From NCBI RefSeq assembly GCF_029227855.1, contig NZ_CP074356.1: a DNA stretch of 64,000 bases; one strand, given 5' to 3'. Shown piece after piece: positions 34,983-52,081 of this stretch. Position numbers and translations under genes: made by a program. The notes beneath the pieces were generated by a model that worked only from the letters and a program-made list of their open reading frames with translations, was not told the DNA's origin and ran no database searches. The DNA comes from Escherichia coli. GTDB lineage: Bacteria; Pseudomonadota; Gammaproteobacteria; Enterobacterales; Enterobacteriaceae. Position 1 is the first letter of the stretch, and every line of letters begins with the position of its first letter.

Positions 34983-36197
34983 ATGAAGATCGTAAAGGCT
35001 GAAGTTTTTGTTACCTGTCCGGGGCGTAATTTCGTCACATTAAAAATCACTACTGAGGACGGTATTACGGGCCTTGGGGATGCCACCCTCAATGGACGTG
35101 AGCTTTCCGTGGCCTCTTATTTGCAGGATCACCTTTGTCCGCAGCTTATTGGTCGCGATGCGCACCGTATCGAAGATATCTGGCAGTTTTTCTATAAAGG
35201 TGCTTACTGGCGTCGCGGCCCGGTGACGATGTCGGCCATTTCAGCGGTTGATATGGCGCTGTGGGATATTAAAGCCAAAGCTGCCAACATGCCGCTTTAC
35301 CAGTTACTCGGCGGCGCGTCTCGTGAAGGGGTGATGGTTTATTGCCATACCACCGGTCACAGTATTGATGAAGCTCTGGATGATTATGCCCGTCATCAGG
35401 AGCTGGGATTCAAAGCCATCCGCGTGCAGTGCGGAATCCCTGGTATGAAAACCACATACGGCATGTCGAAAGGTAAAGGTCTGGCTTATGAACCCGCAAC
35501 CAAAGGACAGTGGCCGGAAGAGCAGCTGTGGTCGACGGAGAAATACCTCGATTTCATGCCGAAATTGTTTGACGCGGTACGTAACAAGTTTGGTTTTAAT
35601 GAACATTTGCTGCATGACATGCACCATCGCTTAACGCCTATTGAAGCGGCGCGCTTTGGTAAAAGCATTGAAGATTATCGCATGTTCTGGATGGAAGACC
35701 CGACGCCTGCGGAAAACCAGGAATGCTTCCGTCTCATTCGCCAACATACCGTCACACCCATCGCGGTGGGTGAAGTCTTCAACAGCATCTGGGACTGCAA
35801 GCAACTGATTGAAGAGCAACTTATCGATTATATCCGCACTACGCTGACCCACGCGGGTGGCATTACCGGTATGCGCCGGATTGCCGATTTTGCTTCGCTG
35901 TATCAGGTACGTACTGGCTCACACGGTCCTTCCGATTTGTCACCAGTCTGCATGGCTGCGGCGCTGCACTTTGATCTGTGGGTCCCCAATTTCGGTGTCC
36001 AGGAATACATGGGTTATTCCGAACAAATGCTCGAAGTCTTCCCGCACAACTGGACTTTCGATAACGGCTATATGCATCCGGGAGACAAACCGGGTCTTGG
36101 CATCGAATTCGATGAAAAGCTGGCGGCGAAATATCCCTATGAATCTGCTTATCTACCAGTCGCACGTCTGGAAGATGGCACGCTGTGGAACTGGTAA
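34983..36197 (+). CDS. rspA: starvation-sensing protein RspA, enolase-superfamily dehydratase (404 aa)
   Basis: ORF 34950..36197; ATG at 34983 ([17 protein letters not shown]...) preceded by AAGGAA. Confidence 0.94.
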
Positions 36198-36208: not shown

Positions 36209-37228
36209 ATGAAAAGCATTTTAATTGAAAAACCGAATCAACTGGCAATTATCGAACGCGAAATACCTACCCCGTCAGCGGGTGAAGTACGAGTAAAAGT
36301 GAAACTTGCCGGAATTTGTGGTTCAGATAGCCATATTTATCGTGGGCATAATCCTTTTGCGAAATATCCGCGCGTCATTGGACATGAATTTTTTGGCGTC
36401 ATTGATGCAGTGGGTGAAGGCGTGGAAAGCGCCAGAGTCGGTGAACGCGTTGCTGTCGATCCGGTGGTCAGCTGTGGGCATTGCTATCCGTGCTCTATAG
36501 GTAAGCCGAACGTTTGTACAACACTGGCTGTATTAGGTGTGCACGCTGACGGTGGTTTCAGTGAATATGCCGTGGTTCCGGCAAAAAATGCGTGGAAAAT
36601 TCCTGAAGCAGTGGCCGATCAATATGCGGTGATGATCGAACCTTTTACCATTGCGGCGAACGTAACCGGTCATGGTCAACCGACTGAAAATGATACCGTT
36701 CTGGTTTACGGTGCCGGTCCAATCGGCCTGACGATCGTTCAGGTATTAAAAGGCGTCTATAACGTTAAAAATGTGATTGTTGCCGATCGCATTGATGAAC
36801 GACTGGAAAAAGCGAAAGAGAGCGGGGCTGACTGGGCGATTAATAACAGCCAGACACCGCTTGGCGAGATTTTCGCTGAAAAAGGCATAAAGCCGACATT
36901 AATTATCGATGCGGCTTGTCATCCTTCTATCCTGAAAGAGGCCGTAATTCTGGCTTCTCCAGCGGCACGTATTGTATTGATGGGCTTCTCCAGTGAACCG
37001 TCTGAAGTGATTCAGCAAGGAATTACCGGAAAAGAACTCTCTATTTTCTCTTCACGCTTAAATGCAAATAAATTCCCGGTCGTTATCGACTGGTTAAGTA
37101 AAGGGTTAATTAAACCAGAAAAATTAATTACCCATACGTTTGATTTCCAGCATGTTGCTGATGCCATTAGTTTATTTGAACAGGATCAAAAACATTGCTG
37201 CAAAGTCTTACTCACTTTTTCTGAATAA
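36209..37228 (+). CDS. rspB: starvation-sensing protein RspB, Zn-dependent alcohol dehydrogenase family (339 aa)
   Basis: ORF 36185..37228; ATG at 36209 after AAGGAG; motifs CGSDSH, GHEFFG, GAGPIG. Confidence 0.94.
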   Translation: MKSILIEKPNQLAIIEREIPTPSAGEVRVKVKLAGICGSDSHIYRGHNPFAKYPRVIGHEFFGVIDAVGEGVESARVGERVAVDPVVSCGHCYPCSIGKPNVCTTLAVLGVHADGGFSEYAVVPAKNAWKIPEAVADQYAVMIEPFTIAANVTGHGQPTENDTVLVYGAGPIGLTIVQVLKGVYNVKNVIVADRIDERLEKAKESGADWAINNSQTPLGEIFAEKGIKPTLIIDAACHPSILKEAVILASPAARIVLMGFSSEPSEVIQQGITGKELSIFSSRLNANKFPVVIDWLSKGLIKPEKLITHTFDFQHVADAISLFEQDQKHCCKVLLTFSE

Positions 37229-37285
37229 TACCAATAACGGCGAATAAGTAGTACGCATCTTACCTCTTTTTTAGAGATAACCATT

Positions 37286-37414
37286 ATGACAATAGAAAAA
37301 CACGAAAGAAGCACTAAGGATTTGGTGAAAGCAGCAGTATCGGGATGGCTGGGCACTGCGCTTGAATTTATGGATTTCAAGAGTCATACGTGTCAACTAT
37401 TTGATAAATATTAA
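37286..37414 (+). pseudogene. ydfJ: 5' fragment of an MFS-transporter gene (ydfJ-like) truncated at the prophage junction
   Basis: Hand translation MTIEKHERSTKDLVKAAVSGWLGTALEFMDF then KSHTCQLFDKY-stop; the first ~31 residues look like the conserved N-terminus of a metabolite:H+ symporter; the reading frame ends 2 bp before the integrase stop. Confidence 0.5.
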
Positions 37415-37415
37415 A

Positions 37416-38696
37416 TTAATTTTTCATTGCTTCGTTATGGGGCATGGTTGGGGCAAACTCGCTTAACTGTGTATTTAACAAAGCTACCTGTGCATTATTG
37501 TTTTCAGACATCCATTTTCCGTATACCTGAAATACCATTTGCGCATCTGCATGGCCCATCTGGTTTGCTATAAATGCCGGGTTAGCACCAGCTGTCAGCG
37601 ACCAGCAGGCATAAGTATGTCTCGACTGATATGATTTTCGATGGCGGAGTCCGGCACGTTTTATCGCTGCGTCCCACATCTGCCTTATTGAGTCAACGGT
37701 AAAATGGTCACCATAATTTTTTACTCTCGCTGACACTTCAGGTTGAAAAACAAAGGTGCATTTTTGTTTTTCTGTTCTGCCATACTCTCTGAGGTGAACA
37801 TCAATGATATGCTCTTTGCTCAGTCTCGTTAATGTCATCTGACTCCGGAGAGCGTCGATTGCTGGCTTAATAAGATGAATGACCCGATTGGTTCCCGCCT
37901 GTGTTTTTGGTACCGTGAAACGGTCTTTTGCTAAATTTCTCCTGATCATCATTGTTCCATTTTTCAGATCTATGTCCTCCCATCCAAGTGCACACAGCTC
38001 ACCAGGGCGAACGCCAGTATAAACAGAAACACACCATAAATTTTTTGCTTGCTGATTTCTGCACGCATCGATAAGACGGATAAATTCCTCCCGCGAAAGA
38101 GGATCCGGAATGGTTCTTGATTCCTTTAATGGCGAGATCCCCTTAAACGGATTATCTGGCAGGTAACCGTTATCAACACCAAACTGGAACACGGCGTTAA
38201 GATTTGTCATGTAATTATTTACAGTTACAGCCGATCTCCCTGGTTGTGTAACAATATAGTTACTTTTGGGGATCTGGTATCCAGTCAGTAGCTCTTTACG
38301 AACCTCCAGTAATTTTTCTTTATTAATCGATGAGGCAAGATTTTTTTCACCGATTATGCTCAGGATATTTTTGATGACGGCACGGTATGTGTTGAGTGAT
38401 GTTTTGGCGACTTCAGTTTCTTTCAGTGCCAGAAATTTTTCAGCCAGTTCTTTTATGGTTAAATCTTGTCGGGCCTCACCAAATTTTTCCAGATTGCGTG
38501 AGGAGGGAAACTGTTTTGCATAGTCGAAAACACCAGTTTTTATTGCGTAACAAACAGAGGCGCGTAGTTCACCTGCAACGCGCCTGTTTTTTGCTGTGTC
38601 AGGAACCCCCAGATTTTCCCTGACTCTTACGCCTTTATAAACAAACCAGATACGTAATTTCCCTCCATGGTTTTCCACGCCTGTCGGATATTTCAT
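37416..38696 (-). CDS. intQ: phage tyrosine integrase (about 426 aa)
   Basis: ORF 37416..38711 (-); preferred start at second ATG 38696 (MKYPTGVENHGGKLRIWF...) preceded by GAGAGG; catalytic region ...HRKSYQSRHTYACW...HADAQMVFQVYGKWM. Confidence 0.88.
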   Translation of the reverse strand: MKYPTGVENHGGKLRIWFVYKGVRVRENLGVPDTAKNRRVAGELRASVCYAIKTGVFDYAKQFPSSRNLEKFGEARQDLTIKELAEKFLALKETEVAKTSLNTYRAVIKNILSIIGEKNLASSINKEKLLEVRKELLTGYQIPKSNYIVTQPGRSAVTVNNYMTNLNAVFQFGVDNGYLPDNPFKGISPLKESRTIPDPLSREEFIRLIDACRNQQAKNLWCVSVYTGVRPGELCALGWEDIDLKNGTMMIRRNLAKDRFTVPKTQAGTNRVIHLIKPAIDALRSQMTLTRLSKEHIIDVHLREYGRTEKQKCTFVFQPEVSARVKNYGDHFTVDSIRQMWDAAIKRAGLRHRKSYQSRHTYACWSLTAGANPAFIANQMGHADAQMVFQVYGKWMSENNNAQVALLNTQLSEFAPTMPHNEAMKN

Positions 38697-38730
38697 TTCA
38701 ACCTCTCTCATTAGTTAGTGTGGCTTTTAG

Positions 38731-38982
38731 TCAAGTAAGATGACGTCTTGGTCTCGCTGATGCCTGGCGCTCAATCCAGCGATCAATTTCTTCCAGGTTG
38801 TAAAAGCATGGACTGTTATCCCATGGCATACCGTCATGAGCGACATGCTTATATTCCCTTCCTTCCATAAACGATTTTTCCCGGGCCTTTTTTAACGTAC
38901 CTTTTTTTATTCCTTTCAGCGCAATTAACTGCTCTTCGGATACCCATTTGCCGGGAGAGACAATCATGATTACTTCGCTCAT
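38731..38982 (-). CDS. putative excisionase (83 aa)
   Basis: Small ORF immediately upstream of int in the same orientation; assignment is by position. Confidence 0.55.
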   Translation of the reverse strand: MSEVIMIVSPGKWVSEEQLIALKGIKKGTLKKAREKSFMEGREYKHVAHDGMPWDNSPCFYNLEEIDRWIERQASARPRRHLT

Positions 38983-39054
38983 CGATTTCTTTATCTCTTA
39001 CATCAGACGAGCGCCGGTTGCAGAATACCAGTCACAACCGGCGACAGTTGAACA

Positions 39055-41526
39055 TTAAGAATCAGCCTGACTCGGGATCAGTTTTTGCCAGATAACTGAA
39101 ACGTATTTTGCCTGGTAACGGGCGTCATCAAGTGCATTATGCCGCTCACCTTCGAATGGAATAGCCGTTCTGGCATCGAAGTCTATGGCTTTCCCCAGCT
39201 CAACGATTGTGCGTACATCGCGATCGTTGTAGTAACGCCACGGGCAGGGGATCCCCTGCCGTTCGTATGAACGGCGCAAAATCGTGTTGTCGAAGTTGGC
39301 TCCATTTCCCCAGACCTGAACAAAAAATTCACCGGAGTTTTCGTCGATAAATTCCCGCAATTGTAACAGTGCATCATCTAACGGGATTTCATCGGTCATA
39401 ATGGCAGACTGCGCTTCACGTGATTGCTTCAGCCACCATTTAATGACGTCACGATCAATGACTCCGCCAGCAGTATTCAGATCTATGGTCTTGCTAAATT
39501 CCGGTCCCATATCTCCGGTTTGTGGATCGAAAAATATTGCGCCTATTGAGATAATCGGGGCATCAGGATTTTTTCCCATGGTTTCAAGGTCGATCATTAG
39601 ATGGTCACACGTCCTGCTGGTGGATGTGATAACGTGATGACCGTTCACCGTAATTAAGGGATCTGCCGTCTCGCCAGTTTCACTATCGCTGGCGTGGTCC
39701 TGAGCGCTGCCAGCATTCTCCTTGTGTGGATGTTCAGCGCCTTCCATTTTCTCCGAATCGTCTTCCTGAACTTCAACCTGGTTCTTGTCATCGAATGTTT
39801 CCTGGTATGTTGCGTCGCCCATCACCGCACCACATTCAGGGCAGTTGCCGCCGCCGGTCTGACCGTAGGCGGTGCAGATTTTTTCCGCTTCCTGTTGCGC
39901 TACTGGCTCAGGTTGTTTCGTTTCTGGCTCGTTTTGTAACGCATTTGGGCTGTTTTGTTCCGCTTTCTGGTCGTTCTGTTCCGTTTCTTGCTGGTTCTGG
40001 TTCACTGAATCGCGGGTTTCAATCCCCTTCACCCATTTCGGATCATTCGGATCGCTAATCCCTGCAACAAATTCACCACGTGATACAGCAAGCAACTGAT
40101 TGGCGTCAGGCTGGCTGATATTGGCTGCCTGCATAATTTTGTTTACTTCGTCAGCGGTAATTTTTACCGGCTCTGGTTGTGCGGTCGTGTCAGATGCACC
40201 AGTATTTTGTTGTGAACCTGAGTATGTACCGTTTTTGCGGGCGAAATATTCTTCTTTCGTGATTTCAGTAGCCCCGGCAGCCAGCGCCTTATCCAGACCA
40301 GAAAGTTTGTTTGCGCGACCGTATTTTTCGCCATCCTTGTCGGTAAAGAGGAAGTAGAACGGCCCCTCACGCTCTACAGATGGTTCGACTTCCACTTTGC
40401 ATTCAGTTTTTTCGTTGCCCGGAATTGCCGTTTCCACTGCATCAGTTTCTGGTACTGGCGACGAGAGAGTATCAGTTGCGCTCTGATTTGTTCCTTCATC
40501 TTCAAACACGCCCTTTGTAGTCAGGTATTTAGTAATGTATTTGTTCAGTGCCACAGGGTCTTTGTGAATGTCGATCGGACGTTCACGGACAAGGCCAAAA
40601 ATAGTCTGGCGGTCGTAGCGAAGGGCATCAGGCTGTTTGCGCATTGATGCCGAGATACGCTTCCAGTCTTCGCGGTCGTTGTCGATAACTTCATTTTTTG
40701 CCCAGCGATGGATGCTGCCGTCAATGTTTCCGGCATCCACATCACCAGGCCAGAGAGCGTAGGCCAGTTCGTCATCCAGTGTTTTCCATGTCTGCTTGTA
40801 TTCGCGATGAGTGGCAGCAATGACCGGGTTGATTTTTCCTGTTGAATTTTCAGTGTGCTGTTGATTGGCTCTGGCGCGGGCGAGATCAACAACAGACGTG
40901 TATTTTCCGGTTTCCTTGCGTTCATTTTCGCGACGTTTTTTCCAGATGCGCATCTCTGCCTGAATTTCGGGCCATTTAGCTCCAGGATTACATTTATGTT
41001 TAACCCACCCGATGGCATGCAGCTTAAGCTCCGGATACATGGCGTTAACTTCTGGCATTTTCATCAACGCTTCAACGATATGTCCGTCGAATGTTGCCAT
41101 GTCTTCCTGCAACAATTCCTGCGCGCTAATCACCATATCAACGGTGATGTTTTCACATGTGTCGAACTTAACCATGACAGCGTTCTGTACTTCAGGGGCC
41201 AGCTTGTCAAAAGTGACGTTCATCGGATCTGATTCAGTCTCAACCGGGACAAAGGAAGCAGACTCCTCATCCCAGCGGTTTTCCTGCATATATTCAGCAT
41301 CCCAGGAATCGAGGGCAGGGCGGGGTATACCGGGTTTATCCTCGCAAACAAGAAATTTATAAGCGCAGTCCTGAGCAACCGGATAATGTTCCAGGAATTG
41401 CCAGTGAAATTTTGCGCGGGCGCGACGTTCATCACCGGCTTCAATGGCAGTGGCTACAGCGATTGCACCTTCTTCCTTTATTGCCTGTTCGTCCGGAATG
41501 GCGGCGCAAATAAAGACTTTACTCAT
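39055..41526 (-). CDS. prophage exonuclease (RecE/ExoVIII-like position) with C-terminal DEDDh-type 3'-5' exonuclease domain (823 aa)
   Basis: ORF track 823 aa; C-terminal motifs MIDLETMG and ERHNALDDARYQ fit Exo I and Exo III of DnaQ-like exonucleases; acidic Q/E-rich central region. Confidence 0.78.
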   Translation of the reverse strand: MSKVFICAAIPDEQAIKEEGAIAVATAIEAGDERRARAKFHWQFLEHYPVAQDCAYKFLVCEDKPGIPRPALDSWDAEYMQENRWDEESASFVPVETESDPMNVTFDKLAPEVQNAVMVKFDTCENITVDMVISAQELLQEDMATFDGHIVEALMKMPEVNAMYPELKLHAIGWVKHKCNPGAKWPEIQAEMRIWKKRRENERKETGKYTSVVDLARARANQQHTENSTGKINPVIAATHREYKQTWKTLDDELAYALWPGDVDAGNIDGSIHRWAKNEVIDNDREDWKRISASMRKQPDALRYDRQTIFGLVRERPIDIHKDPVALNKYITKYLTTKGVFEDEGTNQSATDTLSSPVPETDAVETAIPGNEKTECKVEVEPSVEREGPFYFLFTDKDGEKYGRANKLSGLDKALAAGATEITKEEYFARKNGTYSGSQQNTGASDTTAQPEPVKITADEVNKIMQAANISQPDANQLLAVSRGEFVAGISDPNDPKWVKGIETRDSVNQNQQETEQNDQKAEQNSPNALQNEPETKQPEPVAQQEAEKICTAYGQTGGGNCPECGAVMGDATYQETFDDKNQVEVQEDDSEKMEGAEHPHKENAGSAQDHASDSETGETADPLITVNGHHVITSTSRTCDHLMIDLETMGKNPDAPIISIGAIFFDPQTGDMGPEFSKTIDLNTAGGVIDRDVIKWWLKQSREAQSAIMTDEIPLDDALLQLREFIDENSGEFFVQVWGNGANFDNTILRRSYERQGIPCPWRYYNDRDVRTIVELGKAIDFDARTAIPFEGERHNALDDARYQAKYVSVIWQKLIPSQADS

Positions 41527-41619
41527 TTTGTTTTAACCTCATGACAGATTTAAGGGTGAACAAATCCCTGCCATTGCTGGCATATAAGAATGAAATCGGA
41601 TGTTTATTACGGAACTGTT

Positions 41620-41811
41620 TTAAAGACCTGCCGGGATTTCGTTATTATCCTGGTGAATAACTTTATCGACAGGGTAACAGTTACCGGGAATTTTCTGTTC
41701 GGTTGCTGCAGTCACACACTCCTGCATTGTCCTGTGAACACTGACTGCAATATCAACTGGTTCTCCGGAAACAAGAAAAACTGTCAGAACAAGTGCAAAT
41801 GCTGTATTCAT
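41620..41811 (-). CDS. ydfD: small membrane-targeted protein YdfD (63 aa)
   Basis: ORF 41620..41865 (-); start at ATG 41809-41811 (MNTAFALVLTVFLVSGEPVD...); overlaps the dicB stop (ATGA). Confidence 0.8.
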   Translation of the reverse strand: MNTAFALVLTVFLVSGEPVDIAVSVHRTMQECVTAATEQKIPGNCYPVDKVIHQDNNEIPAGL

Positions 41812-41996
41812 TGCCAGCATCCTTTTTGTATCGGACGTAAACGGGCCAGCATTGAAAGAATGCATACTTTATTTAATAGCTCCCGTTCTTGTTTTCTCTT
41901 GTTAATGGCATCTTCAGTAAATACTGGGTTACTGATAGTGACACCAATTTCAAAACAACCTTCAGACGTATTAACGTTTGGTAATAACGTTTTCAT
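41808..41996 (-). CDS. dicB: cell-division inhibitor DicB (62 aa)
   Basis: ORF 41808..42101 (-); start at ATG 41994-41996 preceded by GAGGA; MKTLLPNVNTSEGCFEIGVTISNPVFTEDAINKRKQERELLNKVCILSMLARL... recognised as DicB. Confidence 0.88.
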   Translation of the reverse strand: MKTLLPNVNTSEGCFEIGVTISNPVFTEDAINKRKQERELLNKVCILSMLARLRPIQKGCWQ

Positions 41997-42165
41997 TATC
42001 GCGTCCTCAACAATGAATTTTGTGATGCAGTGCCTGGTGCCTCCAGGTGACGTTAACCAGTTAACAATTAACGTCGGATACAGAGAATCCACCCATAACA
42101 CTGTTTTTGGTTTTAACTGTTCCGCGTGCGCTCAGCCGCATTCACCGCATCACAAAATTCACTTT

Positions 42166-42223
42166 AAAAACGGCGGCAGAGCAGTCACGGAGTAAAACTG
42201 ATACCGCTAAACGTCACCAGAAA
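42166..42223 (-). ncRNA. dicF: DicF small RNA
   Basis: Reverse complement reads TTTCTGGTGACGTTTAGCGGTATCAGTTTTACTCCGTGACTGCTCTGCCGCCGTTTTT, matching the DicF sequence I recall, including terminator stem and U-tail; lies between the ydfC-like ORF and dicB. Confidence 0.85.
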
Positions 42224-42254
42224 ATTGATAACAGAGGGCGTTGCAGCGGGGTTG

Positions 42255-42446
42255 TCACTTAAGCGTATGGTCAACCTGACAACCCGGTGTCCTCAACGGG
42301 GAAGGAATAACCCCGCCATACTTACCGCCGCGCCATTTCGCGGGTTGCCACAACCGGAAGCGCACGGTCGAATTAAATTTAACGACACCGTACAGTGAGA
42401 CGAACTTCGCCGTGCGCTTTCGTGTTGTGTGCCTGCTTTTAACCAC
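42255..42446 (-). CDS. possible ydfC-like small ORF (63 aa, GTG start)
   Basis: Only positional support (between the ydfB-like ORF and dicF); composition not convincing; a second GTG ORF 42293..42478 competes. Confidence 0.25.
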   Translation of the reverse strand: MVKSRHTTRKRTAKFVSLYGVVKFNSTVRFRLWQPAKWRGGKYGGVIPSPLRTPGCQVDHTLK

Positions 42447-42482
42447 GTCAGGCGAGGTGGTATCCTTAAAATCACCACAGTT

Positions 42483-43058
42483 TTAAGGATTCATTAAGCA
42501 ATGTCGCAACCACCAATAAATCCGCTTAAGAACATGAAAATTGATTACTGGTATAAAGCGCTTACAGTTGTTGGCGCTGCGTTGTTTGTCTTTAATGGAA
42601 CGTCTTTTTTTGACAGATATCCCGTTGTTCCATTGGGTTTTTTGTCCTCCGGCATCTTTTTTATTGGTTTGGGGGAGTGGATTAATCACCCTCTCAAAGT
42701 GAGATTTATTGGTCCTGGAGTTTGGACTCGTGGATATAATCGTTCTTCGTGCGCACTCGGTATCATCTTCGACATACTTGGTTGTTTCCTGATTGTTACA
42801 GGAGTCGTCAAGTTCTTCTGATGTAAAACCGCAAATGGGGCACGTAACGGGAATTTTGAAAAGCGTTTCTCCGGGTTCCAGAACAAAATTTTCTGCGGTC
42901 TGATTTTGCTTCTCATATTTGTGCTCCGCGTCATTGTGAGAGCACATTCTTATTCTGAGTGCCTGTTTAAACTCACTGAAGCTGAGAGCTTCTTCGCCTT
43001 CGGCAAGACCTTCGAAGTATTCTTCGTAAGCCTTTTCCATGATTGTGTCGAAATCCAT
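42483..43058 (-). CDS. ydfB-like ORF, extended (191 aa from MDFDTIMEK...)
   Basis: ATG at 43056-43058, 1 nt after the ydfA stop; N-terminal ~90 aa protein-like (acidic helix, CPICGF); C-terminal half K/R/N-rich and is the codon-for-codon complement of a membrane-protein-like ORF on the plus strand. Confidence 0.4.
   Translation of the reverse strand: MDFDTIMEKAYEEYFEGLAEGEEALSFSEFKQALRIRMCSHNDAEHKYEKQNQTAENFVLEPGETLFKIPVTCPICGFTSEELDDSCNNQETTKYVEDDTECARRTIISTSPNSRTNKSHFERVINPLPQTNKKDAGGQKTQWNNGISVKKRRSIKDKQRSANNCKRFIPVINFHVLKRIYWWLRHCLMNP
42501..42821 (+). CDS. possible antisense 3-TM membrane protein (106 aa)
   Basis: ORF track 106 aa; three hydrophobic segments (ALTVVGAALFVF, VVPLGFLSSGIFFIGLG, CALGIIFDILGCFLIVTGVV); T-rich second codon positions; AAGGA 11 nt upstream of the ATG. 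Shares triplet register with the minus-strand ORF, so only one of the two is likely real. Confidence 0.35.
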   Translation: MSQPPINPLKNMKIDYWYKALTVVGAALFVFNGTSFFDRYPVVPLGFLSSGIFFIGLGEWINHPLKVRFIGPGVWTRGYNRSSCALGIIFDILGCFLIVTGVVKFF

Positions 43059-43059
43059 A

Positions 43060-43215
43060 TCACTCACCTGAGTTTCTTTCCAGCCAGCGACGGGCACCAT
43101 TTTCGGTTTTAAACGTTTTGCTTTTGGTATATGTCATCGCGGTGAACGTACCGTCCTGGTTGGGGAACACGCCACATACCAGAGATTCGCTGTTGCCAAG
43201 ATCGATAGTATCCAT
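43060..43215 (-). CDS. ydfA: DUF1391 small protein YdfA (51 aa)
   Basis: ORF 43060..43269 (-); start at ATG 43213-43215 with GAGG SD; MDTIDLGNSESLVCGVFPNQDGTFTAMTYTKSKTFKTENGARRWLERNSGE. Confidence 0.85.
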   Translation of the reverse strand: MDTIDLGNSESLVCGVFPNQDGTFTAMTYTKSKTFKTENGARRWLERNSGE

Positions 43216-43329
43216 GCTGACCTCATTTCCCCTTAACGCCGGGGTCGCGGAACTGTTTGCTGAGAACACCGTGCGGTGTCTTGATGGAAAGTAATTTAGA
43301 ATAACCTAACACGAGAGGCAAGTGTTTTT

Positions 43330-43347
43330 TGTTAGATTGATCTAACA
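43330..43347. promoter_or_regulatory. perfect palindrome TGTTAGA-N4-TCTAACA, candidate DicA operator at the dicB-operon promoter
   Basis: tgttagattgatctaaca between dicA 3' end and ydfA; same half-sites as the palindrome in the dicA-dicC intergenic region. Confidence 0.5.
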
Positions 43348-43383
43348 AAAAGAGTGGGCGCAACTAATCACTTGAAAAGAATG

Positions 43384-43791
43384 TTATTTTATTGATTTAT
43401 TTTTACGCGCTTTAAGCATTTCTTCGAAGAGTTTGTTGAAGTTTTCTACTCTTGCGCGCATTTCAGACAGCAAGGCTTCCTGCTCGGAAGATGGAAGAGC
43501 ATCGAATAATTCGATCAATTCTTTGTGGTTGGGAGTTAGCTCTGTTTCCACATGAAGTTCTTGTGCAGGCACTGGTGCCTTGTCTTCGTCACCAAACATT
43601 AGCCATGTAGGTGAGCACTTCAGAGCATCCGCTAAAGCAAACAATCGTTTTCCGACTGGCTGGGTTTCGTCTCTTTCCCATTGTGAAATTGTGACGTGAG
43701 CAACTCCAGCGAGGCGCGCAGCTTCTCGTTGTGTTAAGCGTAATTCTTTTCGTCGCGCCAGAACTCGCTGGCCTAGGGTTCTTGTATCCAT
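43384..43791 (-). CDS. dicA: HTH (XRE/CI-like) repressor DicA (135 aa)
   Basis: ORF track 135 aa MDTRTLGQRVLARRKELRLTQREAARLAGVAHVTISQWERDETQP... Confidence 0.9.
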   Translation of the reverse strand: MDTRTLGQRVLARRKELRLTQREAARLAGVAHVTISQWERDETQPVGKRLFALADALKCSPTWLMFGDEDKAPVPAQELHVETELTPNHKELIELFDALPSSEQEALLSEMRARVENFNKLFEEMLKARKNKSIK

Positions 43792-43840
43792 AGTTAGGTA
43801 ATTCTAATTTTTCTTGACTTAGGTATCCCGCGCACAATAA

Positions 43841-43858
43841 TGTTAGAAAAGTCTAACA
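43841..43858. promoter_or_regulatory. perfect palindrome TGTTAGA-N4-TCTAACA in the dicA/dicC divergent promoter region (candidate operator)
   Basis: tgttagaaaagtctaaca, 13 bp upstream of the dicC start. Confidence 0.55.
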
Positions 43859-43871
43859 AGAGGGGGCTTTG

Positions 43872-44099
43872 ATGCTTAAAGTTGACGCAATTACTTTTTT
43901 TGGCAGCAAAACAAAGCTTGCCAATGCCGCAGGAGTGAGACTGGCAAGTGTTGCTGCTTGGGGGATACTGGTTCCTGAAGGTCGCGCGATGCGTCTACAG
44001 GAGGCATCTGGCGGGGAGCTTCAGTATGATCCCAAAGTTTATGACGAATATCGTAAGACGAAGCGGGCGGGGCGGTTGAACAATGAAAATCACTCCTGA
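43872..44099 (+). CDS. dicC: Cro-like regulator DicC (75-76 aa)
   Basis: ORF 43869..44099; ATG at 43872 preceded by AGGGGG; MLKVDAITFFGSKTKLANAAGVRLASVAAWGIL... Confidence 0.88.
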   Translation: MLKVDAITFFGSKTKLANAAGVRLASVAAWGILVPEGRAMRLQEASGGELQYDPKVYDEYRKTKRAGRLNNENHS

Positions 44100-44604
44100 A
44101 CAGGCTCGTGAGGCTCTGGATGCCTGGATATGTCGACCAGGAATGACACAGGAGCAGGCGACGATATTAATCACTGAAGCATTCTGGGCTTTGAAAGAGC
44201 GCCCGAACATCGATGTTCAGCGTGTCACATATGAAGGTGGCGCGGTTGATCAGCGAGCGCTTAGCGTTAATCGAGTGAAGATATTCGAACGCTGGAAGGC
44301 TATCGACACCAGGGATAAGCGTGAAAAGTTCACAGCGCTAGTGCCTGCAATTATGGAGGCTATCCGGATTAGTGATTTCAGGTTGTATCGTGAGATCAGT
44401 GATGGAAAAAGTATTACGTACATGATCGCCGGGTTAAATAAAGAATATGGCGATGTGGTGGAATCCGGACTGCTTTTTGCAGATCCTGCCGTTGTAGATC
44501 GTGAAACTGACGAACTTATAGAAAAAGCAATTGCTTTCAAGCTTGCGTATCGACAGCAATACCAACAAAAAGCTGGATGGAATTATGAGTCTTCTTTTTG
44601 CTGA
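44083..44604 (+). CDS. prophage early protein (YdfX/YdaT-like position), 173 aa
   Basis: ORF track 173 aa overlapping the dicC stop; position equals cII in lambdoid maps; family name is a guess. Confidence 0.55.
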   Translation: MKITPEQAREALDAWICRPGMTQEQATILITEAFWALKERPNIDVQRVTYEGGAVDQRALSVNRVKIFERWKAIDTRDKREKFTALVPAIMEAIRISDFRLYREISDGKSITYMIAGLNKEYGDVVESGLLFADPAVVDRETDELIEKAIAFKLAYRQQYQQKAGWNYESSFC

Positions 44605-45550
44605 ACGCCCACTGGTTATAAACACGCAGCTGGCAATGAAAATCGGCTTAAACGAAGCCATTGTTTTGCAACAACTGCACTACTGGTTGAGAGATACCAA
44701 CTCCGGTATGGAATGTGATGGTGTTCGCTGGATTTATAACACAACGGAACAATGGCTGGAACAGTTCCCATTCTGGTCAGAGTCAACGTTAAAGCGCGCG
44801 TTTGCAAGTCTGAAAACGCTGGGGCTTTTGCGTTGTGAAAAGCTCAATAAATCAAAGCGCGATATGACCAATTTCTACACGATCAACTATGGGAGCGAGC
44901 TTTTAGATGGTGGCAAATTGAACGAATCCATCGGTTCAAAATGCGCCGCTCCATCAGGTCAAAATGACACGATGGAAGAGGTCAAAATGAAACGCTCCAT
45001 TGGTTCAAAACGATCCAATGTCATCGGGTCAAAATGGCCTGATGATCTTACAGAGAATACAACAGAGATTACTACAGAGAATAAAAACACTTTTCGTCCG
45101 GAAGCTTCGCAACCGGACCCGCAGACGACTGAACAGGATTTTTTAACCCGGAACTCCGACGCGGTTGTGTTTAGTGCGAAAAAACGCCAGTGGGGTAGCA
45201 GGGAGGATTTGGCGTGTGCGCAGTGGATCTGGGGGCGGATCGTGGGTCTCTACGAACAGGCAGCCAGTGATGATGGCGAGATCATGCGACCAAAAGAGCC
45301 TAACTGGACTGCCTGGGCCAATGACGTGCGCACAATGCGGATGCTGGATGGCAGAAGCCACAGACAAATTTGCGAAATGTTTGGTCGGGTTCAGCGAGAT
45401 CCATTCTGGGTAAAAAACATCATGAGCCCGTCAAAGCTCCGCGAAAAATGGGACGAACTGGTCATCCGCCTGGGACGTTCACCTGTACAGCGTTGTGTTA
45501 ATCATATTTCTGAACCGGATACAGAAATTCCGCCTGGTTTCAGAGGATAA
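44585..45550 (+). CDS. phage replication initiation / replisome organiser protein (O-like), about 321 aa
   Basis: ORF 44531..45550; start chosen at ATG 44585 (MSLLFAERPLVINTQLAMKIGLNEAIVLQQLHYWL...), an N-terminal winged-helix pattern I associate with phage replisome organisers; alternative start 44636. Confidence 0.7.
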   Translation: MSLLFAERPLVINTQLAMKIGLNEAIVLQQLHYWLRDTNSGMECDGVRWIYNTTEQWLEQFPFWSESTLKRAFASLKTLGLLRCEKLNKSKRDMTNFYTINYGSELLDGGKLNESIGSKCAAPSGQNDTMEEVKMKRSIGSKRSNVIGSKWPDDLTENTTEITTENKNTFRPEASQPDPQTTEQDFLTRNSDAVVFSAKKRQWGSREDLACAQWIWGRIVGLYEQAASDDGEIMRPKEPNWTAWANDVRTMRMLDGRSHRQICEMFGRVQRDPFWVKNIMSPSKLREKWDELVIRLGRSPVQRCVNHISEPDTEIPPGFRG

Positions 45551-45590
45551 GTGTTGATTTCAGGTCATGAGGTAATTTTAAGGGGGACTT

Positions 45591-46022
45591 GTGGCAAAAG
45601 TTTTTACACAAGAAGAGCGGGAAAAAATTAAAGGGCAGGTGGTGGAACTCGTGCGCCAGAGCGGTCGTGAGACGTTACGGCAACTGGAAGCTAAAACAGG
45701 TGCGACTAGATATCTGATGAGCGTTCTTGCCAGAGAGCTGGTAGCCAGTGGCGATGTATACAACTCCGGCTACGGGTTATTCCCGTCTGAACAGGCGCGT
45801 AAGGACTGGCAACACGCCCGCAAAAAACTCTCGAGGGCAAAGGTGAAGAAACCTGCTGTGGTTGATCCGGACCTTATCTGGTCATTACCTGACGGAGAAA
45901 TACGCCGCTACGACAGTCGCCTAAACATAATCTGTCGCGAGTGCCGGAAGACTGAAGTTATGCAGCGTATACTCGCATTCTATCAGGGAAATGTTCGATA
46001 TCTATTGAAGCGACGAGATTAA
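45591..46022 (+). CDS. hypothetical prophage protein (143 aa, GTG start)
   Basis: GTG at 45591 preceded by AGGGGG; basic protein; function unknown. Confidence 0.5.
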   Translation: MAKVFTQEEREKIKGQVVELVRQSGRETLRQLEAKTGATRYLMSVLARELVASGDVYNSGYGLFPSEQARKDWQHARKKLSRAKVKKPAVVDPDLIWSLPDGEIRRYDSRLNIICRECRKTEVMQRILAFYQGNVRYLLKRRD

Positions 46023-46345
46023 AGAGCATTAGTTCAGATGTGAATTGACATTTTCGTGGCACAAGATTAGCGCTAGCGTGGTCGTTTGGTTTGTGCCAAG
46101 AGCGGATAATGCTGACATTCCTATGCACTAATTAACGCAGAGCAAGCCAGTTAGTTGGTTATGGAAGTAAGTTGTAGCCAGCAACTATCACCATCGGAGA
46201 TATTTAGGGGGATGCACTCTAAGTTGTAGTTACTTTATAATGTCACTTTCAAAGCGGAAGCTTGTACAAAAGATGGATAAGCTTTTGTATAGTATGGGAT
46301 TCAAGAATCACTAAAAGATGACAACAGTACTTACAGGATGTGGCT

Positions 46346-46585
46346 ATGATCCGAATTATGATTAGAATATTTTCTTTGACATTCGTTGCTTGCGCTGGCT
46401 TTGCTGCATATCACTTCAATAGTGTGCCATTGATGTTCACTTCTGGTAGCTTTCTTGTAACATTTTTAGGTACATTTATTGTTAATAAAAAAAGTTCAGG
46501 GCATACAATAATTCAAAAAAGCGGTAGCCATTCAAAAAATAATCATACGGTCGTTTTTGGAAATAATGAAAACAAGCGAGGCTGA
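46346..46585 (+). CDS. small two-TM membrane peptide (79 aa), first gene of the AT-rich cassette
   Basis: ATG at 46346 with AGGA upstream; MIRIMIRIFSLTFVACAGFAAYHF...LMFTSGSFLVTFLGTFIV then polar tail; stop is 2 nt before the next start. Confidence 0.5.
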   Translation: MIRIMIRIFSLTFVACAGFAAYHFNSVPLMFTSGSFLVTFLGTFIVNKKSSGHTIIQKSGSHSKNNHTVVFGNNENKRG

Positions 46586-46587
46586 TC

Positions 46588-47184
46588 ATGGTTGGTGTTA
46601 CTCAAAGGTCAGGGAATTACTCACGTAATGTGCAGGTGGTTGTCGATTCTAACTCTGTTGATATTATAAAGTCTCCATCGATTTTTATGGATCTTGTTGG
46701 TATTTTAGTTGATTCGAATGTTATTGATCCTCGTACAAACAATGACTACGAGCCATATGATATTGAGAATAAAATAGACTTCAATGATGTTATAAAACAT
46801 AGAGAACGTATTGAAGGGTTCTATCTATATTCTTCGATGATAGATAAAGCGTATGAAACATTAAATGAAAGTATGCCTACTGCTAAGGAAACGGCACTGA
46901 AAAGCATCAATTCACGATATCTTGATTGTCAAGGAGATTTATTGCTTAAACATAGAGAAGCGTATAAGAGCTGCAAGGATGCTCAGGAACGGAATAATTT
47001 AAAGATTCAATTGGTAAGAGAGTTTGCAGATTGGATAATAGACAGTGTAATAGAGCACATCATTAAGAAATGCTTAAATTCTCTTATGGCAATGAATTAC
47101 ACAAGCGAAGAAATCGAATGCCATGCTTCTTTTATCGTTTATCATGCATTCGTAGAGTGTAAGATTCTGGAAAAACCAATATGA
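46588..47184 (+). CDS. hypothetical protein (198 aa), second gene of the AT-rich cassette
   Basis: ATG 46588 with GAGG SD; stop overlaps the next start (ATGA); no motif I recognise. Confidence 0.65.
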   Translation: MVGVTQRSGNYSRNVQVVVDSNSVDIIKSPSIFMDLVGILVDSNVIDPRTNNDYEPYDIENKIDFNDVIKHRERIEGFYLYSSMIDKAYETLNESMPTAKETALKSINSRYLDCQGDLLLKHREAYKSCKDAQERNNLKIQLVREFADWIIDSVIEHIIKKCLNSLMAMNYTSEEIECHASFIVYHAFVECKILEKPI

Positions 47185-47417
47185 TTATCTCTGATGTAAC
47201 AAAACCAAGCCAAACCTTGTATTACCTGGGAGCTCGGTTATTAGAATGCATGAGTTCAAATGCTTATTCGTATGTTGATATTATAGACTTGTATAATGAA
47301 TTCAAATCTAAAAATAACAACTCTTCATTCACGCAATATATTTACACTTTAAATTGGCTATATTTATTAGGCCTGGTTGATGCTAACGAAAATGGAGATT
47401 TGATATTATGTTTTTGA
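47181..47417 (+). CDS. hypothetical small protein (78 aa), third gene of the AT-rich cassette
   Basis: ATG 47181 overlapping the upstream stop; 3' end overlaps the ATPase start by 10 nt. Confidence 0.6.
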   Translation: MIISDVTKPSQTLYYLGARLLECMSSNAYSYVDIIDLYNEFKSKNNNSSFTQYIYTLNWLYLLGLVDANENGDLILCF

Positions 47418-49132
47418 AACGGCTAATAGTCAGTTCTTTCAGGCTTGGAGTGATTCGTGATATCGAATTTCACATTGGCGTTAATTTGATTATTGACCGA
47501 AACACCTCCAGCAAAGAGCAAACTGGAAATGGTGTGGGAAAAACTACTGTATTAAGAGCTTTAGATTTTTGTTTTGGAGCAGAACAACTGAATTTTTATA
47601 CCGATCCTGAATTCAAGAAAGAAAATTCGGTTATAAAAAATTATTTGATAGAGAACGAGATTGAGTTTTGTTTAATTCTCACAAAAGATTTGAATAATAA
47701 AACTGCACCAGTAATAAAAATTAAGCGTAAAATTACATCTGAGACTAATAAAACGAAGGTTATAGCCTCAATAAATGAAGAGTCCTATACGAAGGCTAAA
47801 GATTTCAACGAGGCTTTAAAAAGAACATTATATCTTGATTCCGCGATAAAACCGACCATACGAGAGATTATGGGACGTGTTATTCGAAATACGCATGACA
47901 AGATGTCGAACGCATTAAAAACGATAAAAATGGGTTCTAATACACAATATGAAACGTTAAATCTGTTTATGTTTGGGTTCGGTAACTCACAGATTCTGGA
48001 TGAAAAACAGTCAGTGACTAAAGCCTATAAACTGGCGAAATCCGATTATGAAGTAATTACTCGCCATCGCTCAAAGAATGCTTTGGAACAAGCTATTGCA
48101 ATTATAAATAGAGATATTATAGCACAAGAAGAGTTAATTTCTAATTTTCAAGTGGCAGACTCTTATAATGATATGCTTGCTGAGTTAAATGAGTTAAAAA
48201 TTAAAATTAGTGAAGTTTCTATCACACTATCATCTTTGGAGTTTAAGCAAAAATTAAACGATAAGGCTATACTAGATCTGGAAAAAAGTCATGAAAATAT
48301 AAATACACTAGATCTACAGAAGTTGTACTTAGAAGCAACTGATCGGTTAGGTAACTTAAACAAAGAGTTTACTGAGCTACTTTCGTTTCATAATAAAATG
48401 CTTGTAAAAAAAGCTGAGTTTATTAGAAAACAAATGCAGCCAGTGCTGCAAGAAATTTCCAAATATAAAGATGAACTAAATAATTTATTGACTCAAGAAT
48501 CAGAGCTTTTAAAGAGTTTGTCTTCGCATGGGACATTGGCAGACCTGCAAATAATGCAAAAAAAATTAAATTCATTATTTGAAGAAAAAGGTGGGCTTGA
48601 AGCTGGACTACTTCAAATCCAAGAGATGGAGAACAACTTTAATATACTGAAAGCAAAGTTTAATGATGTGTCAGATAGATTAAAATCTAAACTTGACGAT
48701 TTTAACAAACGTCTTGCGCTATTCAATTCCTATTTTTCTTTATATACTAAAAAATTATATCAGGATGAATATATTCTTTCCTATAAAGATTCCTCCGGTT
48801 CTTTCGTTTTTACCATTGAACCTTTAGGAACTTTGCTCACATCAGGTAATCAGGGAGAAGGAAAAAAGAAAGCCCAGGTTGCCTCTTTAGATTTTGCCTA
48901 TTTATCTGTCCAGGAGTCTTTAGAAGCCAGAACACCACGTTTTATAGCTCATGATGGAATTGAGGCAATTCATGTAAATCAAATAAATAAGTTATTCGAG
49001 ATAGCTTCGGGGATTAATGGTCAATATATATTGGCTATTCTTAAAGACAAGTTGGAGAATATTGATCAAGACTTCATCAATAATAGTGTTGTGCTTGAGC
49101 TTGGGGAGGACGATAAGTTTTTTAGGCTTTAA
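47408..49132 (+). CDS. SMC/Rad50/ABC-type coiled-coil ATPase (574 aa), fourth gene of the AT-rich cassette
   Basis: N-terminal P-loop TGNGVGKTTVLRALDFCFG (RecF/SMC-type Walker A); ~300-aa heptad-rich central region; C-terminal TSGNQGEG (signature-like) followed by RFIAHDGIEAIH (Walker-B/D-loop-like); GGAG SD. Confidence 0.8.
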   Translation: MFLKRLIVSSFRLGVIRDIEFHIGVNLIIDRNTSSKEQTGNGVGKTTVLRALDFCFGAEQLNFYTDPEFKKENSVIKNYLIENEIEFCLILTKDLNNKTAPVIKIKRKITSETNKTKVIASINEESYTKAKDFNEALKRTLYLDSAIKPTIREIMGRVIRNTHDKMSNALKTIKMGSNTQYETLNLFMFGFGNSQILDEKQSVTKAYKLAKSDYEVITRHRSKNALEQAIAIINRDIIAQEELISNFQVADSYNDMLAELNELKIKISEVSITLSSLEFKQKLNDKAILDLEKSHENINTLDLQKLYLEATDRLGNLNKEFTELLSFHNKMLVKKAEFIRKQMQPVLQEISKYKDELNNLLTQESELLKSLSSHGTLADLQIMQKKLNSLFEEKGGLEAGLLQIQEMENNFNILKAKFNDVSDRLKSKLDDFNKRLALFNSYFSLYTKKLYQDEYILSYKDSSGSFVFTIEPLGTLLTSGNQGEGKKKAQVASLDFAYLSVQESLEARTPRFIAHDGIEAIHVNQINKLFEIASGINGQYILAILKDKLENIDQDFINNSVVLELGEDDKFFRL

Positions 49133-49279
49133 GATTTGTAATTTGATAGATATGTAGATATCATTTTTCTCGCTCAAAACTGACAGTCAGATTTGAGCGA
49201 ATTGCTTATGTAAGTATTTCGCAGAATCATGCCATTTATATTTATTAGAACATACGTACTTTAAATGTGGGAGGCTGTC

Positions 49280-49366
49280 ATGTTGGTTCTTAAATGTTCG
49301 CTGACTATTGCGGTGGTGCGGGTAATTTATTGTTCTGTTATTCTTATGGATCGCCTTTCTGACTGA
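49280..49366 (+). CDS. possible 28-aa hydrophobic peptide
   Basis: ATG 49280 preceded by GGGAGG at spacing 6; MLVLKCSLTIAVVRVIYCSVILMDRLSD; could be coincidental. Confidence 0.25.
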   Translation: MLVLKCSLTIAVVRVIYCSVILMDRLSD

Positions 49367-49577
49367 TTTCATATTGGCGAGATAACGGGAGTTAAGTAGA
49401 ATGCCTGCGGGTGCTTGAGGCTATCTGCCTCGGGCATGAACACCAACGGCAGATAGAGAAAAGCCCCAGTTAACATTACGCGTCCTGCAAGACGCTTAAC
49501 ATTAATCTGAGGCCAATTTCATGCTAGACACATGTAGGTTAGCCTCTTACGTGCCGAAAGGCAAGGAGAAGCAGGCT

Positions 49578-49733
49578 ATGAAGCAGCAAAAGGCGATGTT
49601 AATCGCCCTGATCGTCATCTGTTTAACCGTCATAGTGACGGCACTGGTAACGAGGAAAGACCTCTGCGAGGTACGAATCCGAACCGGCCAGACGGAGGTC
49701 GCTGTCTTCACAGCTTACGAACCTGAGGAGTAA
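49578..49733 (+). CDS. hokD: Hok/Gef-family membrane toxin HokD (51 aa)
   Basis: ATG 49578 preceded by AAGGAGAAG; MKQQKAMLIALIVICLTVIVTALVTRKDLCEVRIRTGQTEVAVFTAYEPEE; ORF track shows an in-frame upstream extension from 49521. Confidence 0.86.
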   Translation: MKQQKAMLIALIVICLTVIVTALVTRKDLCEVRIRTGQTEVAVFTAYEPEE

Positions 49734-49740
49734 GAGACCC

Positions 49741-49830
49741 GGCGAGGGAGAAATCCCTCGCCACCTCTGATGTGACAGGCATCCTCAACGCACCCGCACT
49801 TAACCCGCTTCGGCGTGTTTTTGTTTTTAT
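49741..49830 (+). terminator. stem-loops and T-run downstream of hokD (putative 3' fold-back/terminator region)
   Basis: Hairpin ggcgaggga-gaaa-tccctcgcc at 49741-49762, then cgcttcggcg followed by tgtttttgtttttatttt. Confidence 0.4.
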
Positions 49831-49949
49831 TTTCAACGCGTTTGAAGTTCTGGACGGTGCCGGAATAGAATCAAAAATACTTAAGTAGCGCGCAGGGATA
49901 AGAGGGATGTTCCCTTAAAGGGGAGAGCTAATTATCCGGAAGGATTCTG

Positions 49950-50201
49950 ATGATGAACATCGAAGAACTGCGTAAAATTTTTTGTGAAGATGGCCTCTAT
50001 GCTGTGTGCGTTGAAAATGGAAATCTTGTTAGTCATTACCGCATTATGTGTTTGCGAAAGAATGGGGCTGCGTTAATTAATTTTGTGGATGGTCGAGTGA
50101 CAGACGGATTTATCTTGCGCGAAGGTGAGTTTGTCACTTCATTACAGGCACTGAAAGAGATCGGAATAAAAGCAGGCTTTTCAGCTTTTGCAGAAGAATA
50201 A
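49950..50201 (+). CDS. rem: Rem protein (83 aa), function unknown
   Basis: ORF track 83 aa MMNIEELRKIFCEDGLYAVCVENGNLVSHYRIMCLRK...; conserved Qin gene next to hokD. Confidence 0.8.
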   Translation: MMNIEELRKIFCEDGLYAVCVENGNLVSHYRIMCLRKNGAALINFVDGRVTDGFILREGEFVTSLQALKEIGIKAGFSAFAEE

Positions 50202-50267
50202 ACTCATCTACAATCTTGCGCGGGGCTGAACTCCCGCTGAGTAACACCGTGCCACCGGAGAAAACCG

Positions 50268-50546
50268 ATGGCACGCAACGTAAAATATTACAATTCTGAT
50301 AATTCGCCCGTTCTTGCCTGCACGCACGAGCGGTATTCTCACGCATTCAAGTCTGAATGGTTCCAGCACCCTCCATGCACTGAAGAGCAGGCTGAATGGA
50401 TAATTCAGTGTTACCGCAGGCGCGGATACGAGGTTAAGAAAGCCCTTAGTCTCGACTACCGTCACTGGATAATCTCAGTCAGATTGCCTTACTCCGAACG
50501 CCCACCGCGTCCGTCCCGTACATTCCAGCAACGCATCTGGAGGTAA
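50268..50546 (+). CDS. hypothetical prophage protein (92 aa)
   Basis: ATG 50268 with GGAG upstream; stop 1 nt before the ydfU start. Confidence 0.5.
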   Translation: MARNVKYYNSDNSPVLACTHERYSHAFKSEWFQHPPCTEEQAEWIIQCYRRRGYEVKKALSLDYRHWIISVRLPYSERPPRPSRTFQQRIWR

Positions 50547-50547
50547 C

Positions 50548-51597
50548 GTGCGGGTATTACTTCGACCTGTTCTGGTACCGGAACTCGGGCTGGTGGTCGT
50601 TAAGCCGGGCCGTGAATCCATGCCGGTATTCCACAATACCCGGGTACTGGTGGAGCCGGAACCGAAAAGCATGCGTAATCTGCCGTCCGGGGTCGTTCCT
50701 GCCGTTCGCCAGCCGCTGGTGGAAGACAAAACATTGCTGCCGTTTTTCAGTAACGCACGGGTGATTCGTGCTGCTGGTGGTGCTGGTGCATTGTCTGACT
50801 GGCTGTTGCGCCATATTAAATCCTGCCAGTGGCCACACGGCGATTATCATCACAGCGAAACCGTCATTCACCGTTATGGTACCGGCGCAATGGTGTTGTG
50901 CTGGCACTGCGACAACCAGCTGCGTGACCAGACATCCGAATCACTCGAGCAAGTTGCTCATCAAAACCTGTCAGCATGGATGATTGACGTCATCGGTCAC
51001 GCAATAAGCGGTACGCAGGAGCGTGAATTATCTCTGGCTGAATTATCCTGGTGGGCGGTCCGCAATCAGGTGGCGGACGCGCTACCGGAAGCGGTATTAC
51101 GTCGTTCGCTGGGGTTGCGTGCGGAAAAAATCCGCTCAATGTACCGCGAAAGCGACATCGTACCGGGAGAGCAGACCGCCACCAGCATATTGAAACAGCG
51201 CACAAAAAATCTTGCACCGTTGCCTCACGCCCACCAGCAACAAAACCCATCACAGGAAAAGACGGTGGTAAGCATCACCGTTGATCCAGAGTCTCCGGAA
51301 TCTTTCATGAAGCTGCCTAAACGTCACCGTTGGGTTAAGGAGAAATACACACGCTGGGTTAAGACACAGCCGTGTGCTTGCTGCGGGATGCCAGCCGACG
51401 ATCCGCATCATCTGATTGGTCACGGGCAGGGCGGAATGGGAACCAAAGCACATGATCTCTTTGTGTTGCCTTTGTGCAGAAAGCATCACGACGAGTTGCA
51501 TACGGATACCGTGGCATTTGAAGAGAAGTATGGCTCCCAACTGGAGCTGATTTTTCGATTTATCGATCGCGCGCTGGCAATTGGTGTGCTGGCCTAA
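50548..51597 (+). CDS. ydfU: DUF968-family prophage protein YdfU (349 aa)
   Basis: ORF track 349 aa, GTG start after GGAGG; C-terminal Cys/His cluster CACCGMP...[10 protein letters not shown]...CRKHHDELH. Confidence 0.87.
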
Positions 51598-51614
51598 TTT
51601 TGTGGAGTAAGTTG

Positions 51615-51992: not shown

Positions 51993-51999
51993 TTAAAGG

Positions 52000-52060: not shown

Positions 52061-52081
52061 ATTATCATATAACAGCTTGTT

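Follow-up and report, generated by a model that had tools for sequence, protein, structure and literature searches.

A full-length Qin-type lambdoid prophage with its attL in the 5' end of ydfJ in Escherichia coli

Our analysis of a stretch of 64,000 nucleotides from an Escherichia coli genome (contig NZ_CP074356.1; henceforth the window) indicates that the interval 37229-37415, which runs from the rspB stop (37228) to the stop codon of an integrase gene on the minus strand (37416-37418), contains the attL of a lambdoid prophage that is site-specifically integrated in the 5' end of ydfJ. We hold this reading to be close to certain (probability of about 0.97), and nothing that we found contradicts it, some expression of an N-terminally shortened transporter being possible under it. 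An earlier note, made from the sequence of the window, had described a reading frame 3' of rspB that begins like a symporter and then enters unrelated sequence, and had interpreted it as the 5' end of a ydfJ-like MFS transporter gene, at which a prophage with a convergent integrase begins. Each of these points was upheld: identity to ydfJ ends at 37378 with phage DNA thereafter, alignment to an uninterrupted allele identified the fragment, and the integrase was recovered both by Pfam and in the annotation.

The bacterial side of the junction was delineated by comparison with the uninterrupted locus of strain SW4848, where the gene order is speG, ynfB, ynfA, rspA, rspB, ydfJ (455 aa), ydfI and ydfZ. 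The window and this locus gave a single collinear alignment of 3,579 nt (99.0% identity), which spans speG-ynfB-ynfA-rspA-rspB-ydfJ' and has 37378 as its last base. As expected of the E. coli rsp region, speG, ynfB and ynfA precede rspA (34983..36197, plus strand), the first gene of the interrupted rspA-rspB-ydfJ-ydfI cluster, which codes for a member of the D-mannonate dehydratase family ('starvation-sensing protein RspA' in the RefSeq annotation of strain 19A14; NCBIfam NF011654 and NF043051, with E of about 1e-247 and 1e-224). Directly 5' of the ydfJ fragment lies rspB (36209..37228, plus strand), a Zn-dependent oxidoreductase gene by NCBIfam (NF007489, E 1e-208) and by RefSeq annotation. 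It is separated from the fragment by an intergenic spacer of 57 nt (37229..37285, plus strand), whose bacterial origin is evident from its collinearity with SW4848. The fragment itself comprises codons 1-31 of ydfJ (37286..37378, plus strand), and is identical to the intact SW4848 gene at 93 of 93 nt and to its product (WP_000151243.1) at 31 of 31 aa.

The open reading frame of 42 aa that starts with this fragment is too short for HMM searches, in which it had no Pfam or NCBIfam match, and its identification was for this reason derived from nucleotide identity and synteny. The collinear alignment up to codon 31 of ydfJ places the fragment at the syntenic position, far beyond what could be expected by chance, and by these two measures it is the 5' part of the MHS-family MFS transporter gene ydfJ. 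The intact protein matches Pfam MFS_1 (E 2.7e-37) from residue 21 onwards, and its hydropathy profile has a first hydrophobic segment at about residues 13-42. Given that the break falls at codon 31/32, the gene is cut inside the segment for the first transmembrane helix. The topology was judged from this domain boundary and hydropathy profile; a PDB sequence search with intact YdfJ for transmembrane topology returned no match at E <= 1e-5. We take the product of ydfJ to be a sugar-acid transporter. The rspAB-ydfJ-ydfI cluster of strain CFT073 has reportedly been linked to L-gulonate catabolism.

A four-way alignment of attB, attP, attL and attR revealed a common core of 11 bp, TTATGGATTTC, at 37368..37378, which is identical in all four sites. 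The attB of SW4848 reads ...GCGCTTGAATTT ATGGATTTC C AG TTATATTCGC... and the attP of phage mEp460_ev081 reads ...ACACCTGTGAATT ATGGATTTC A AG AGTCATACGT..., while the attL of the window and of K-12 reads ...GCGCTTGAATTT ATGGATTTC A AG AGTCATACGT... (K-12 having two different bases further into the phage arm) and the attR of 19A14, identical in K-12, reads ...ACACCTGTGAATT ATGGATTTC C AG TTATATTCGC.... Beyond the core there is an imperfect extension to 37381, with an A/C mismatch at 37379 followed by AG. The core of attL is flanked by the bacterial T at 37367 and the phage A at 37379, and that of attR by the reciprocal pair; this reciprocity implies that both strand exchanges took place within 37368-37378. 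Hence the crossover must, by sequence comparison, which is also what sets the limits of the core, fall within these 11 bp. An attL near 37375-37415 had been proposed earlier, and it is indeed found at this junction, but the core lies slightly to the left (by about 7-10 nt) and merely touches the left edge of that range, the rest of which covers the first part of the phage P' arm. In annotation the prophage boundary therefore belongs at the 11-bp core.

Both ends of the prophage could be checked against free phages. We reconstructed attP by joining 400 nt of phage DNA to the left of attR with the 400 nt that run rightwards from the core in the window. This sequence was contiguous over its full length in Tritos, HannyBb, PhiR42_1 and mEp460_ev081, at 98.9-99.6% identity, and in all four phages it adjoins their own integrase and excisionase genes; likewise, the DNA of the window from 37379 onward is contiguous with the left arm of each of them. 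The contiguity of attP in free phages thus provides independent confirmation of both prophage ends. A search of attP for arm-type repeats returned only short two-copy families and one significant core-like copy. The latter is a recurrence of the attP 21-mer ACCTGTGAATTATGGATTTCA as ACCTGTGCATTATTGTTTTCA, with 3 mismatches, at 37486-37506 (plus strand), 118 nt into the prophage and inside the 3' coding end of int; there was no match in 100 shuffles of the window. This copy is identical in the Qin prophage of K-12, Tritos and mEp460_ev081, and has 6 mismatches in an O157:H7 variant; it may represent a site bound by Int, or else a duplication of old date. We also observed that the attP of the Tritos record (OV696610.1, 2893-2913) has ATGCATTTC where the others have ATGGATTTC, a G-to-C change inside the 11-bp core that could reflect either true variation or an error in sequencing.

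As a consequence of the insertion the 5' fragment of ydfJ is extended by phage DNA into a chimeric reading frame, MTIEKHERSTKDLVKAAVSGWLGTALEFMDFKSHTCQLFDKY, of 42 aa (37286..37414, plus strand; stop codon 37412-37414). Its tail of 11 codons and the stop (37379..37414, plus strand) is derived from the phage, constituting the start of the P' arm of the prophage, and is contiguous with the left arm in the free phages. A single nucleotide (37415) separates the stop of the chimera from that of the convergent integrase gene, where a gap of 2 bp had previously been counted. In the identical genome 19A14 RefSeq leaves the 5' fragment without annotation (NZ_CP147046.1, 1724533-1724719), and gives only the 3' part, 46 kb away, as a ydfJ pseudogene. 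The correct label for the frame at 37286-37414 is accordingly the 5' piece of a ydfJ pseudogene split by a prophage.

The 11-mer core occurs once in the window, and neither the remaining 1,275 nt of 3' ydfJ nor the rest of the SW4848 locus beyond the alignment has a blastn match anywhere in it. These two results place attR outside the window, and the far end of the prophage was located in the 19A14 genome (NZ_CP147046.1), which is 100.0% identical to the window over all 24,901 nt of 39100-64000 and in which the record coordinate equals 1761948 minus the window coordinate. There, the ydfJ remainder (1677229-1678512) is annotated as 'MHS family MFS transporter YdfJ, incomplete, missing N-terminus' and is followed by ydfI, ydfZ and rspR, with ynfT, ydfK, pinQ and then tail genes on its other side. 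The core-to-core distance is 46,066 bp. The earlier note had correctly anticipated that the rest of the transporter gene lies past the far prophage end and outside the window. The matching core at that end is the one found at attR of 19A14. The only intact homologue of the fragment that we found is its own allele, and the att core maps to the junction.

At attR the remainder of ydfJ forms an open reading frame of 427 codons, with the native Met29 as its first residue, that matches the intact allele at 426 of 427 positions. Two codons 5' of Met29 there is an in-frame TGA, and this rules out a replacement N-terminus for YdfJ supplied by the phage. Excision performed in silico, by joining 37286-37378 to the right side of attR, yielded a 455-aa reading frame identical to SW4848 YdfJ at 454 of 455 residues. 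By this comparison ydfJ is split but has no other damage, and a precise excision would make it whole.

These observations can be drawn together in a model in which the phage tyrosine integrase recombined the core of attP with the same 11 bp in codons 28-31 of ydfJ. Integration left codons 1-31 joined to rspAB at attL and shifted codons 29-455, together with ydfI, to attR, 46 kb off and severed from the operon promoter, so that promoter drive on ydfJ'-ydfI is presumably lost. The orphaned 5' fragment reads 11 codons into phage DNA, giving the 42-aa chimera that abuts the convergent int. The transporter gene is interrupted, and for as long as the prophage stays in place its function is probably lost; Int and Xis would be expected to restore the gene by precise excision. 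Consensus scans for promoters and terminators at attL and attR gave nothing above shuffle expectation, and neither support nor exclude read-through or a phage-borne promoter.

A different view of the consequences would be that the insertion rewires the regulation of ydfJ and does not inactivate it, with a 427-aa YdfJ still expressed from Met29 and functional. The 427-codon frame is indeed intact, with a native in-frame ATG and near-complete identity to the allele of uninterrupted strains, and some transcript exists in K-12, where ydfJ is among the genes differentially expressed after induction of DicC in a transcriptome study (PMC11430063). However, the protein would be deprived of residues 1-28, which include the first 8 residues of MFS_1 and about half of the first hydrophobic helix, and the in-frame TGA leaves it with no phage-encoded N-terminus in place of the lost part. 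Furthermore, the 600-bp phage arm has no promoter-like site facing the remainder in a consensus scan, a weak kind of evidence, and the remainder is carried as a pseudogene in RefSeq; we regard a functional shortened transporter as improbable. The chimera at the opposite end could similarly be imagined to be a small functional membrane peptide made from the rspAB transcript. It keeps the native ydfJ translation start, lies 57 nt 3' of rspB with no intervening terminator-like site detected in a consensus scan (again weak evidence), and the same 42-aa chimera is found in thousands of genomes. Yet the prevalence of the prophage by itself accounts for that of the chimera, which consists of half a transmembrane helix and 11 residues dictated by the sequence of the phage arm, and has neither a family match nor a RefSeq annotation. 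We give this idea next to no credence.

The prophage might also act as a reversible switch ('active lysogeny'): when substrate is available it would be excised in a regulated manner and without lysis of the cell, which would make ydfJ whole again and put ydfJ-ydfI back under the rspAB promoter. The Listeria comK prophage offers a precedent for excision and reintegration acting as a reversible switch, and in like manner such events would here switch the sugar-acid cluster rspAB-ydfJ-ydfI between an active and an inactive state. In favor of this, int and xis are intact in the window prophage, the split ydfJ is undecayed to the extent that its in-silico excision gives an intact frame of 455 aa, the perfectly identical 11-bp core means that excision would be scarless, and close relatives of the prophage occur as free phages. 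On the other hand, nothing supports regulated excision as such, the int of the K-12 occupant is a pseudogene, which indicates that the disruption there is fixed rather than switched, and the remainder may be intact simply for the reason that core genes diverge little within E. coli. That about 63% of genomes have no intact site (see below) also suggests that the transporter is dispensable, and a switch of this type seems to us very unlikely. We thus favor plain site-specific integration into ydfJ as the account of this junction.

The window contains the left 26.6 kb (37379..64000) of a 46-kb lambdoid prophage of the Qin type, which runs on past the end of the window as judged from the annotation of the identical genome. 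Its first gene encodes a full-length tyrosine integrase of the intQ type (37416..38711, minus strand; the RefSeq start at 38696 gives 426 aa) with the Pfam domains Arm-DNA-bind_2 (PF12167, E 5.6e-24) and Phage_integrase (PF00589, E 4.1e-18). By inspection, the motifs TGVRPGE, YQSRH and GH and a C-terminal Y are present, corresponding to the expected catalytic positions of the conserved pattern R...(H/Y)xxR...H...Y. This is followed by an excisionase gene (38731..38982, minus strand), identified by the Pfam DUF1233 'putative excisionase' (E 1.6e-31) and by the annotation of 19A14 and Tritos, and by a gene for a RecE-like exonuclease (39055-41526). The order of the prophage in the window is int, xis, the RecE-like exonuclease, ydfD, dicB, DicF, the immunity region, and a cargo of defence and toxin-antitoxin genes, after which come Q, the lysis genes, terminase, portal and a protease/capsid fusion. 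Rfam searches recovered the DicF sRNA (42171-42222, minus strand, 64.8 bits) and the sok antitoxin RNA of hokD/sok (49409-49583, plus strand, 115.3 bits). According to the annotation of the identical genome, the terminase, portal, protease-capsid and tail modules of the prophage are complete, and rem and ydfU are present. Only a few of its genes are flagged as partial or frameshifted in 19A14, among them a frameshifted tail assembly gene and a partial tail-fibre assembly gene. Given these flagged tail genes, infectious particles may not be formed, which would leave excision unaffected. With its intact int and xis, the prophage may be able to excise.

Between the replication region and hokD, at about 46588-49132 (plus strand), we observed an 'ABC-three component system' made up of a DUF2326 protein, a middle component 6 and a third protein, which is probably anti-phage defence cargo. 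The same spot in related prophages is occupied by genes for dCTP deaminase, AIPR, DUF262, FRG, DUF4209 or DUF7380 proteins, and this variety makes it look like a hotspot of defence genes.

A comparison with the Qin (Kim) prophage of K-12 showed the same arrangement around a reduced element. The core and its immediate flanks are identical at both attL and attR, the integrase is of the same type, the junction of rspB, ydfJ' and int (a query of 1,101 nt) is 99.1% identical, and the neighbors are rspB on one side and ydfJ'-ydfI-ydfZ-rspR on the other. The Qin signature genes dicB, DicF, ydfD, ydfA, hokD/sok, rem, ydfU, essD, rrrQ, ydfK, pinQ and ynfT are common to both. In K-12, rspB is followed by an integrase pseudogene without its N-terminus, an IS2 fragment, a partial exonuclease gene, ydfD and dicB, and from about 20 kb onward come tfaQ, pinQ, ydfK, ynfT and then 'ydfJ, missing N-terminus', ydfI, ydfZ and rspR. 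Qin is therefore a remnant of about 20 kb with int truncated beside the IS2 fragment and with exonuclease and tail genes partial, whereas the window prophage is 46 kb long, its int, xis and exonuclease genes are of full length, its modules for packaging, head and tail are complete, and it bears other cargo, including the ABC-three-component system. Thus, it is a full-length relative that does not share the defective, cryptic state of Qin. The statement in the earlier note that Qin likewise splits ydfJ in K-12 agrees with the K-12 attL and attR sequences and with published accounts, which describe integration of Qin at the 5' end of ydfJ with loss of the promoter and a truncation of 28 codons (PMC6379469) and name ydfJ as its insertion site in strains W, K-12, B and Crooks (PMC3032704). 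A lambda-like prophage of 46.8 kb has also been recorded 'between ydfJ and rspB' in SE11 (PMC2608844).

Among free phages, mEp460_ev081, Tritos, HannyBb and PhiR42_1, with genomes of 45-49 kb, share the attP region, int and xis with the window prophage (over the 800 nt compared above), and the early region of mEp460-like phages is 93-96% identical over 29-41% of the prophage part of the window. However, these are mosaic relatives only; no phage record covers at least 80% of that part, and the terminase and portal genes are closest to those of phage cdtI (98.9%). Lambda-type integration at the 5' end of a gene, as exemplified by the Rac prophage in ttcA, is similar in that the tyrosine integrase has an arm-binding domain and an excisionase beside it, the common core is short, and attL and attR arise within coding sequence. 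Integration of Rac leaves TtcA with an altered N-terminus (PMC6379469), in contrast to the window prophage, which by virtue of the in-frame TGA gives ydfJ no substitute N-terminus, ydfJ being annotated as a pseudogene.

We surveyed the occupancy of the site by a megablast search of window positions 36800-37900 (1,101 nt) against 5,426 complete E. coli genomes. Matches to this junction query were obtained in 5,168 of them, with at least 80% of the query covered in 2,661. Among the matches listed, genomes of high coverage span the entire junction with rspB and int, and those with intact ydfJ end at query positions 579-582, equivalent to 37378-37381 of the window, within a feature annotated 'ydfJ: MHS family MFS transporter YdfJ'. 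A query of 601 nt spanning attB was covered to at least 80% in 2,011 of 5,374 genomes, implying that about 63% of complete E. coli genomes are without an intact site; among the split genomes listed, the match to its right half begins at the core. The matches listed include intact ydfJ in CFT073 and O25:H4, and split ydfJ in K-12, BL21, O103, O111 and O157; anecdotally, going by these rows, occupancy may follow phylogroup. Essentially this prophage was found in only six genomes of the collection.

Two further observations concern related attachment arms elsewhere. In O157:H7 7386WT (NZ_CP089036.1, about 3950-4600), an attP-like junction of phage arm, core and phage arm lies next to a DinI-like gene and to an integrase that is truncated at its N-terminus and shares about 91% identity with that of the window; rspB is not adjacent. 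By its sequence, this resembles what tandem or rearranged prophages at the ydfJ att site would leave. Many records of Stx2a-converting phages (LC727844-LC727872) end in an integrase/att arm that is 91-92% identical, which indicates that some Shiga-toxin phages carry a related arm.

The insertion of Qin-type phages at the 5' end of ydfJ has been well documented before, and the window holds a junction of a new, complete instance of it, whose only difference from the K-12 arrangement is a full-length prophage with intact int and xis. Beyond correct annotation, the finding by itself matters little. The proportion of genomes lacking an intact ydfJ does imply that phenotypes of the rspAB-ydfJ-ydfI cluster are strain-dependent. 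A complete phage of 46 kb, with free-living phages among its close relatives, here occupies the ydfJ site that is familiar from the decayed Qin element in K-12, making the strain a possible source for the study of active Qin-type phages.
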